This document shows, piece by piece, positions 3,417 to 4,529 of a stretch of DNA of 26,641 nucleotides. Numbering within the stretch: the stretch's first letter is position 1; each line of letters starts with the position of its first letter. The translations under genes and the position numbers were made by a program. The stretch lies in IMG/VR virus record IMGVR_UViG_3300037067_021160, one strand, 5' to 3'. The stretch comes from a virus. The notes under the pieces were generated by a model. The model was not told the DNA's origin. It saw only the letters and a list, made by a program, of their open reading frames with translations, and searched no databases.

Positions 3417-3611
3417 GCTACATCATGTTGGCGGACTTTCGGCTTTAGGGCCTTATAGTTGTAATGCTGACACTGCTTTTAATGTAAGGAGTAATCGTGG
3501 ATCAGGCCGTCACCCGTTACGAGTCGGATCCAACCAACTCTATCGTACTTGGGCGCTTTGCCTTGGATATGATTCTACTTCACGATTAGCTCCCCAAAAA
3601 TACGCGAAAAG

Positions 3612-3684
3612 ATTGCGTGATAGGAGTTGAACCTACAGTGGGGGTTTCACCCAGAAGACTCTGCTTCCACGTCTACCAATTGCG
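3612..3684 (-). tRNA. tRNA-like element with tRNA-Leu-type D-arm and long variable arm but a non-canonical (6- or 8-nt) anticodon loop
   Basis: Reverse complement reads ttgcgcg-tg-acg-caattggtaga-cgt-g...gtagg-ttcaact-cctat-cacgcaa-t. The acceptor stem pairs at 6 of 7 positions. The D-arm matches bacterial tRNA-Leu (AAUUGGUAGACG). A T-arm and a variable hairpin gggtgaaacccc are present. The anticodon stem ggaag/cttct encloses cagagt, not a 7-nt loop. No CCA is encoded. Confidence 0.4.
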
Positions 3685-4101
3685 TCACGCGCAATCTTTT
3701 CACTAATACGCTAATTATATTTTCAATAATTAAGCGCATGTCACAATAAATGATCCAGAGATACTTATCTTCACCCTTTTCTCGCATTGCTCTACGTCTA
3801 CACGTCTGTAGATACGGGATCGTACTGAAATATTGACTGGCGCTTGGGCACAGTGCGCTCCAAGTAAAGTCTTCGCTGGCACACCAGTTTGAATTATGGG
3901 CGAGTTTAAGACGGTCTCTGTGCTGCAGCACTACTCATCTAAGTCGGCGACGTGAGTCGATAAGACCCCTTGAAGATGAAACTCGGGGGAATATGGCGCC
4001 ACATAATTCTACCTGAGAGGGAAATCGCTCGGGTATCGCCTGTTTTACAGGGTGCGACCGGTATCTTTAATTTTGCGATTTTTCTAACCCTCTTCCTTAT
4101 T

Positions 4102-4130
4102 TGGTGGAGATGCCCGGAATCGAACCGGGG
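4102..4130 (-). other. orphan tRNA 3' fragment: T-arm, acceptor 3' strand and encoded CCA, with no matching 5' half nearby
   Basis: Reverse complement reads gac-cccgg-ttcgatt-ccggg-catctcc-a-cca, a perfect 5-bp T-stem and canonical T-loop. No ggagatg-like 5' acceptor strand was found within several hundred nt. The adjacent 8-bp/24-nt-loop hairpin agctcaaa...tttgagct lies at about 4160-4208. Confidence 0.4.
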
Positions 4131-4529
4131 TCTTACAAGATAGCCTGTTCGGCACTTATTACACGCTTAGCTCAAACTTCTTATCGTTTTCGGACTATTC
4201 TTTGAGCTCAACATTGTCCGCTACGGTACTTTTATAAGCTTATGCACACACAAATAAAGCCTAGATTTGTGTGCACGGCAGATTCCTAAGTATCAGAGAA
4301 CTTGCAATCGGAATCGTATTACATTCTCTGGCTATCGGCTTATTAGGCTGCGATGGCTACCGGAACATCTTCGAGGCTTCTTGCGAAGTCAGCAACGATG
4401 ATCTCGGCGCGTTCGACTGTGTCGTTGGCATTTGTTTTGTTACTTACGATTTTTACGGGTCTGCAAGTTTGCCCGGCGTGCTCCTCACTCACTACGACAT
4501 GTAATCGATACCTTGTCATCCCCAAATCA

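Follow-up and report, generated by a model that had tools for sequence, protein, structure and literature searches.

A complete tmRNA gene and a Leu-type tRNA-like element in a non-coding stretch of a contig that appears megaphage-like

Introduction

In the established pathway of trans-translation, transfer-messenger RNA (tmRNA, gene ssrA) acts together with SmpB on stalled ribosomes. Genes for tmRNA and SmpB have been reported from huge phages (Al-Shayeb et al. 2020, PMC7162821), and in phage G the tmRNA lies in a non-coding gap (PMC12484599). Another group of small RNAs, the Y RNA-like tRNA mimics YrlA and Yrn1 of bacteria and phages, are non-decoding; they carry D- and T-arm features of tRNA, and their tRNA-like module sits on a long helix made by the two ends of the RNA (Chen et al. 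2014, PMC4201824). Here we describe positions 3366-4529 of the IMG/VR virus record IMGVR_UViG_3300037067_021160, whose whole length of 26,641 nucleotides is called the window below. This stretch contains a complete one-piece tmRNA gene followed by a Leu-type tRNA-like element (Table 1). We consider it likely that it represents an RNA-gene cluster, with the tmRNA as its main gene, and that the contig, whose minus strand is the transcribed one, derives from an uncultured phage of very large genome or from a comparable mobile element.

A complete tmRNA gene with a long tag

ARAGORN and the Rfam model RF00023 gave the same coordinates for the tmRNA gene. The Rfam match reached 110 bits (gathering score 47, E 1.7e-42) and covered model positions 1-374 of 374. 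A preliminary description of this DNA, made by eye from its letters, had reported a T-arm, a 7-nt 3' acceptor strand and an encoded CCA at 4102-4130, all lacking a 5' partner, and had read them as either an attachment-site remnant or a tmRNA-like 3' domain. All three parts are present and the second reading was correct, as they are the 3' end of the full-length tmRNA gene. The missing partner does exist: the strand GGGGAUG, 405 nt away, closes the complete molecule. The resulting stem includes G3.U70, the alanine identity pair of the tmRNA acceptor stem.

The internal structure of the gene is equally complete. Both stems of each of the pseudoknots PK1 and PK4 pair perfectly when checked by script, and the PK2 and PK3 hairpins were aligned to the RF00023 model. 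The second stem of PK4 (4208-4201 / 4176-4169) is the helix of 8 bp, its arms 24 nt apart, that had been noticed earlier beside the supposed fragment. The resume codon GCC occupies tmRNA position 95, in a region that aligns with the Rfam consensus. It opens a frame of 28 codons whose product ends in PVAIAA and is followed by two stop codons; a 51-nt insertion inside this frame accounts for the extra length relative to the Rfam consensus. The gene shows every defining feature of RF00023 that can be tested in sequence. The Rfam tmRNA_permuted model also gave a hit that would use this 3' end for a second, permuted tmRNA (19 bits, E 0.2-4); the hit owes its score to the T-arm and was dismissed as due to chance.

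Like the bacterial one-piece tmRNAs, this RNA has an acceptor stem with G3.U70, a T-arm, helix 2, PK1, PK2-PK4 and a CCA end, and its tag frame stops in the helix-5 loop. It differs from them in the 28-codon tag, in the D-loop analogue GGUAUCGA and in its location on a mobile element. With the phage tmRNAs it shares the setting of a full tmRNA gene in a non-coding gap of a large phage-like genome, which also carries tRNAs and translation or chaperone genes (here peptide deformylase and DnaJ), and it was detected with ARAGORN, the same tool as in those studies. Long tags are a further likeness, since tmRNAs on viral contigs also have tags of 25-31 aa; when ARAGORN was applied to about 120 viral loci retrieved from IMG/VR, 88 tmRNAs were found, with tags of up to 31 aa. 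In contrast to the phage tmRNAs, the present one matches no retrieved tmRNA outside its tRNA-like domain, its tag ANDTVERAEIIVADFARSLEDVPVAIAA was returned by ARAGORN as "not identified", and no SmpB was seen within the 26.6 kb.

The 3' ends of tRNA and tmRNA genes are common integration sites. The piece at 4102-4130 does end in CCA, so in principle it could mark the edge of an integrated element, as the copy of a tRNA 3' end that integration leaves behind. Several observations make this origin extremely improbable. The piece is continuous with a full-length tmRNA that scores across the whole model, and composition and gene style are alike on its two sides. About 48 open reading frames (ORFs) of the window were scanned against Pfam, and no integrase family was found among them. 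Even when 3 mismatches are tolerated, the window contains a single copy of the 31-nt tmRNA 3' end, and no direct repeat matching it is present within 3300-4600. With neither an integrase nor a second copy of the 3' end in the window, the attachment-site idea fails.

The tmRNA starts 6 nt past the stop codon of its upstream neighbour, a 231-aa ORF (4530-5225), and no terminator-like site was found 3' of the tmRNA before the tRNA-like element. Co-transcription with the neighbouring genes, followed by processing, is therefore plausible. If the RNA works as in the established pathway, it would be charged with alanine and would enter stalled ribosomes together with SmpB, a protein that either the host or another part of the phage genome would provide. 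Translation would then switch to the tag frame, so that the ribosome would be released and the truncated protein marked for proteolysis, and ribosomes would be kept available during infection.

Relatives of the tmRNA and nature of the contig

DNA similarity searches against 50,697 annotated phage records, in near and distant modes, gave no match, and specific exact or degenerate DNA patterns of the tmRNA and of the Leu-like element had no hit in IMG/VR. Looser patterns recovered from IMG/VR unrelated tmRNAs that have only the T-arm and the 3' end in common with this one. Among the GTDB representative genomes (one per species), the 25-nt 3' end of the tmRNA is identical in two Peregrinibacteria and one Anaerolineae. 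Since the tmRNA bodies do not align with those of Peregrinibacteria and Anaerolineae, no host can be inferred.

The same 25-nt motif was also seen at 411-435 of an 11-kb contig (JAIRTY010000331.1) from a metagenome-assembled genome labelled Nocardiopsaceae, yet ARAGORN called no tmRNA there. This contig bears 24 tRNA genes in 2.7 kb, one of them called with a 4-base anticodon (gagc), and has the look of a tRNA array from a phage that was binned with a bacterial genome.

"Megaphage-like" appears to be the best-supported label for the contig, and it is not proven. Among the annotated phage records, the 833-aa protein with major vault protein (MVP) domains has matches in only 3 metagenomic phage genomes (462, 735 kb), all full-length and 42-44% identical, and the best matches of DnaJ are in phage genomes of 635-642 kb. 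Every credible gene of the window is read from the minus strand, and a Pfam family was found for only about a quarter of the ORFs. A rival view is that the contig is a piece of bacterial chromosome and the tmRNA the cell's own ssrA. Such an origin would suit the presence of tmRNA, peptide deformylase, DnaJ and flotillin/NfeD, all typical of cells, as well as the 3' end identical to that of Peregrinibacteria and Anaerolineae tmRNAs. We regard it as improbable, given the low share of Pfam matches, the uniform gene direction and an MVP-like gene that, among annotated phage records, matches only megaphage genomes; moreover, beyond its tRNA-like domain the tmRNA shows no relation to those cellular ones, and neither smpB nor other housekeeping neighbours occur in the window.

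Other points weigh against a phage carrying this RNA-gene cluster. No phage structural or packaging gene is present in the window, so the term "phage" rests on distant protein matches and on gene layout, and the contig could belong to a large plasmid-like element instead. No SmpB gene was found among the scanned ORFs, and this partner of the tmRNA is assumed. Finally, relatives of the tmRNA body, the spacer and the tRNA-like element were found in none of the collections searched, which leaves the structures other than the tmRNA without support from covariation.

A Leu-type element of tRNA origin

The Leu-type tRNA-like element placed at 3612-3684 by the preliminary description is real, and it extends on the minus strand from 3696 to 3611. 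It starts with UUGCGCG-UG-ACG-CAAUUGGUAGA-CGU-GGAAG-CAGAGU-CUUCU, which leads into the variable arm, and continues after it with GUAGG-UUCAACU-CCUAU-CACGCAA-U. The acceptor stem has 7 bp with one C.A mismatch, the discriminator is U and the CCA is not encoded. The D-arm is of the Leu type, with a 3-bp stem and the loop CAAUUGGUAGA. The elbow nucleotides U8, G18 G19, A21, U54 U55 C56 and A58 are all intact. At 90% thresholds, ARAGORN also drew the aberrant anticodon arm noticed before, that is, the 6-nt loop CAGAGU on the 5-bp stem GGAAG/CUUCU.

Default ARAGORN and Rfam at gathering thresholds did not call the element. At the 90% threshold ARAGORN reported it as c[3611,3694] with a score of 97.3, labelled 'tRNA-?(Ser|Leu)(ga)' and flagged as a possible pseudogene. 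In 60 dinucleotide shuffles of the window no relaxed ARAGORN hit attained this score, and the T-loop motif GGTTCRANTCC occurs 6 times in the window, always on the minus strand, against 0.07 expected. By both measures the element exceeds chance: it is tRNA-derived and not a chance pattern. It counts against the element that relaxed ARAGORN also scores 97.6 inside a coding region (14078-14168); in view of this similar score, the ARAGORN score alone is weak evidence and no proof of a gene.

The best match within the Rfam clan was tRNA-Sec (RF01852, 22.2 bits vs 47, E 0.15-2.9), an identity that was discarded as sub-threshold and lacking UCA in the loop. The intron and mitochondrial modes of ARAGORN gave implausible calls only. 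A pattern combining a Leu-type D-loop with the anticodon stem of this element and a 6-nt loop had 7 hits in IMG/VR, all of them chance occurrences in GC-rich coding sequence.

The element is further characterized by its flanks. The arms of a 12-bp inverted repeat (3701-3690 / 3617-3606) run beyond the acceptor stem into both sides, so that the terminal helix extends 5-7 perfect pairs past it. The fold of 3603-3704 has an energy of -34 kcal/mol (z -3.06), and 1 of 200 shuffles was equally stable. That this pairing was noticed post hoc is a point against its weight.

Decoding tRNA, relic or tRNA mimic

Four features expected of a decoding tRNA were compared with the element. Its acceptor stem, D-arm and T-arm with the elbow nucleotides are as in a tRNA, and the other three, namely detection at standard thresholds, a 7-nt loop with U33 and free ends, are absent. 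The default tools are silent, the loop has 6 nt, the alternative 8-nt form lacks U33, the discriminator is U and there is no CCA; on these grounds the element is non-canonical, and we infer that it cannot act as a decoding tRNA. The preliminary description had offered a choice between a pseudo-tRNA and an unusual decoder. The first is tenable for a sub-threshold element flagged as a possible pseudogene, whereas the second is unlikely in view of the missing U33 and CCA, the U discriminator and the paired flanks.

The form in which such a decoder could work is a tRNA with an 8-nt anticodon loop on a 4-bp stem, used in four-base decoding or frameshifting. Opening the G31-C39 pair does give an 8-nt loop, and recognition by bacterial leucyl-tRNA synthetases is, as far as known, independent of the anticodon. 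However, this loop, GCAGAGUC, has C and not U at position 33, and the form with 5 bp and 6 nt is the one drawn by relaxed ARAGORN and predicted by the fold of 3611-3694. The discriminator is U, whereas Leu identity in E. coli uses A. With the CCA not encoded, both ends buried by the paired flanks, and the ORFs of the window long and intact under the standard code, a working tRNA of this kind is very improbable.

It is more difficult to choose between a tRNA gene in decay, with no present function, and a structured module. The failure at the default ARAGORN and Rfam thresholds, the pseudogene flag, the 6-nt loop and the C.A mismatch of the acceptor stem are all as in a relic, and ordinary tRNAs are encoded elsewhere by the phage, one for Met within the window and one for Tyr just outside. 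In a relic, however, one would not look for intact tertiary-contact nucleotides with the defect confined to the anticodon loop, nor for a significantly stable fold. By our own estimate from base composition, a flank helix of 5-7 perfect pairs has a chance of about 0.001-0.008. Moreover, on a distantly related contig (L004) the same relative position is taken by a further Leu-type tRNA-like gene whose anticodon arm is disrupted. A relic is thus quite possible, somewhat short of an even chance.

A tRNA gene in decay would not be expected to have a paired leader and trailer, and such pairing would interfere with the usual maturation of the ends, which favours a structured module over a plain relic, if only slightly. 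Our slight preference, held at about an even chance, is therefore that the element may be a structured, non-decoding tRNA-mimic module. It could, for example, serve as a processing or stability element of a transcript reading through from the tmRNA.

With class II bacterial tRNA-Leu the element shares the T loop UUCAACU on a stem of 5 bp, a long variable arm and a D stem of 3 bp whose 11-nt loop ends in AAUUGGUAGA. It differs in the 6-nt anticodon loop, the U discriminator, the C.A pair of the acceptor stem, the paired flanks and the sub-threshold score. The Leu-type gene of L004, which lies above the Rfam tRNA threshold, has the same form of D-arm. The element also resembles the Y RNA-like mimics of bacteria and phages, since it too combines tRNA D- and T-arm features with a long terminal helix. 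Unlike YrlA it is not permuted, and its terminal helix takes the position of the acceptor stem. Another difference is that no Ro60/Rsr (TROVE-domain) ORF occurs among those scanned, and the terminal stems of this element and of the permuted one described below lack the Ro-binding motif GNCGAAN0-1G. Membership in the Y RNA family (RF02553) was rejected for both: the Leu-like element gave no model hit, and the permuted one scored 25.8 bits against a threshold of 69, with no rsr gene. Of the features of that family, the tRNA-like module is the only one present.

Loci related to the upstream neighbour

Contigs L004 and L005 carry a distant homologue of the ORF upstream of the tmRNA, and odd tRNA-like genes lie directly 3' of it. 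The first of these, on both contigs (2802-2960 in L004), is the Leu-type gene mentioned above, with a mismatched anticodon stem, an insertion of about 87 nt and an Rfam tRNA score of 36 bits. The second, again on both contigs (3187-3259 in L004), is a tRNA whose anticodon, AUU, sits in an arm with a 6-bp stem and whose position 33 is A. About 650 nt more of non-coding sequence follow past the two genes. At the other loci of this gene family no odd tRNA-like genes were found downstream. In the case of contig L140, the neighbouring tmRNA is probably coincidental, because that contig looks bacterial.

The non-coding stretch and its gene neighbours

The stretch had been described as non-coding and comparatively GC-rich, and both statements hold. 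No small ORF in it reaches a curated Pfam threshold, and its GC content is 46.1% (3417-4529) vs 38.6% for the window. The enrichment is not unique to the gap, certain coding parts being at 50-51%. The limits used here, 3366-4529 (1164 nt, 45.7% GC), take the likelier start of the downstream gene at 3365, which was given by the gene caller on the near-identical Logan contig L001 and is preceded by a good ribosome-binding site. The window is in itself an entire JGI metagenome contig, and the Logan assembly of SRR18595300 carries the same sequence with 1 mismatch in 6.4 kb.

The spacer between the tmRNA and the tRNA-like element had no Rfam match beyond chance and no ORF at a curated Pfam threshold, so that searches for a known RNA family or a coding region returned nothing; its overall structure is not unusual (z -1.1). 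The extended hairpin that follows the tRNA-like element is stable. The fold of 3480-3600 reaches -40.3 kcal/mol (z -3.07; 1 of 200 shuffles equally stable), and no Rfam match was found for it.

Table 1. Features of the window named in the text
Feature	Coordinates	Strand	Evidence or remark
Peptide deformylase	700-1248	-	Pfam
Extended hairpin of about 112 nt, basal helix of about 15 bp, directly downstream of the tRNA-like element	3485..3596	-	folding
Extended terminal helix, perfect 12-bp inverted repeat GAAAAGAUUGCG / CGCAAUCUUUUC	3606..3701	-	repeat search
Leu-type tRNA-like element	3611..3696	-	ARAGORN 90% threshold, Rfam sub-threshold
Spacer of 405 nt between tmRNA and tRNA-like element	3697..4101	-	no gene or RNA family assigned
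Complete one-piece tmRNA (ssrA) gene, 422 nt	4102..4523	-	ARAGORN and Rfam RF00023
tmRNA T-arm CCCGG-UUCGAUU-CCGGG, 3' acceptor strand, encoded ACCA	4102..4132	-	Rfam, ARAGORN structure, script
tmRNA pseudoknot PK4: S1 CGGAC/GUCCG, S2 AGCUCAAA/UUUGAGCU	4169..4220	-	script; S1 in Rfam alignment
tmRNA tag frame: resume codon GCC, 28 codons ANDTVERAEIIVADFARSLEDVPVAIAA, then UAA UAA	4340..4429	-	ARAGORN; translation checked
tmRNA pseudoknot PK1, 5' of resume codon: S1 CGGG/CCCG, S2 ACUUGC/GUAAGU	4442..4475	-	script; S2 in Rfam alignment
tmRNA 5' acceptor strand GGGGAUG	4517..4523	-	pairs 7/7 with CAUCUCC (4112-4106), including G3.U70
Flotillin (SPFH)	5512-6987	-	Pfam
NfeD	6994-7551	-	Pfam
DUF7873	10862-11713	-	Pfam; adjoins the MVP-like gene
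MVP-like protein, 833 aa, with major vault protein shoulder and repeat domains	11858-14359	-	Pfam
SLT lytic transglycosylase	14492-14923	-	Pfam
DnaJ	15310-16389	-	Pfam
Porin-like protein	17015-17950	-	Pfam

The gene neighbours were compared with those of other genomes. Proteins with DUF7873 occur widely among jumbo phages, including those of Rhizobium, Vibrio and Gordonia. In the neighbourhoods of the MVP-like gene in the 462- and 735-kb phages there is no tRNA or tmRNA nearby and no other gene in common. The flotillin relatives (51-58% identity) likewise have only the NfeD-flotillin pair in common with the window. This pair is kept on four other metagenomic contigs (L151-L154), whose flotillins stand apart from the bulk of bacterial flotillins (at most 45% identical); a gene of about 190 aa follows it on two contigs (L151, L152/L153). 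The downstream 136-aa neighbour of the non-coding stretch has no useful relatives.

Other tRNA-like RNAs in or near the window

Four further T-loop-bearing RNA elements were found on the contig. The 86-nt tRNA-like RNA at 9810-9895 (minus strand) has a perfect promoter, TTGACT-17 nt-TATAAT, at about 9906-9934 on the same strand. It has a 7-bp acceptor stem (U1.G72), no D-arm, a canonical anticodon arm of 5 bp and 7 nt (CUUAUAA, anticodon UAU), a long extra arm, a T-arm and an encoded ACCA end. The Rfam tmRNA model matches its tRNA-like domain only (29.9 bits, E about 1e-8 to 1e-9), and ARAGORN detects it at 80% thresholds only.

The element at 10647-10716 (minus strand) is circularly permuted, in a YrlA (Y RNA-like) layout. 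Its order is T-arm, CAGCUCC as the 3' acceptor strand, a 21-nt AU-rich loop, the perfectly complementary GGAGCUG as the 5' acceptor strand, and D-arm, and its flanks pair and close it. It lies just 3' of the DUF7873 and MVP-like genes; its Rfam YrlA score is the sub-threshold value given above, and no rsr gene or Ro-binding motif was found. The only plus-strand ORFs, at 9653-10517, sit in a 25-32% GC island between these two tRNA-like elements, and one of them has a weak HNH endonuclease match (E 0.027). Insertion of a homing endonuclease gene among the RNA genes may be the explanation.

A possible tRNA-like piece at about 5176-5282 (minus strand) is poorly formed and tentative. It has the acceptor-like stem UCCCGGU/GCCGGGA, a 4-bp T-arm with the loop UUCGAGU, and CCA. 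It sits in the 385-nt gap after the flotillin gene and shares sequence with the start of the 231-aa ORF as annotated; homologues of this ORF begin at its residue 34.

Canonical tRNA genes are also present. A tRNA-Met(CAT) lies at 7977-8051 (minus strand), with a U1.U72 mismatch atop its acceptor stem and no encoded CCA. The remaining 1.1 kb or so of the 1.2-kb gap around it (7552-8772) has no ORF or RNA family assigned. Outside the window, about 1.3 kb past its position 1, contig L143 of this phage has a tRNA-Tyr(GTA) of canonical class II form at 2890-2974 (ARAGORN score 103). It adjoins a radical SAM gene and has the same T stem, GUAGG/CCUAU, as the Leu-like element.

A bolder reading, which we hold to be unlikely, is that the Leu-type element is functional and one of at least 3-4 non-decoding tRNA mimics, the others being those at 9895..9810, 10716..10647 and possibly 5282..5176. 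Such a set might act as decoys for tRNA-cleaving defence nucleases of the host or for tRNA-binding enzymes, or might provide scaffolds or processing signals for the tmRNA-bearing RNA island.

Biological meaning

Phage-borne tmRNA is an already known kind, as the genes of huge phages, of phage G and of the IMG/VR loci show, and most of the cluster is ordinary. What this locus adds to the set from large phages is a divergent tmRNA with an unusually long, acidic tag of 28 residues. For the reading of other genomes, a seemingly orphan T-arm, acceptor strand and CCA should be tested as a tmRNA 3' end, because the partner strand lies 300-400 nt away. The finding supports the picture that large phages bring their own parts for ribosome rescue and protein quality control, here tmRNA, peptide deformylase and DnaJ. 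The non-decoding, tRNA-shaped RNAs, if expressed, would be candidates for tRNA mimicry in the conflict between phage and host.

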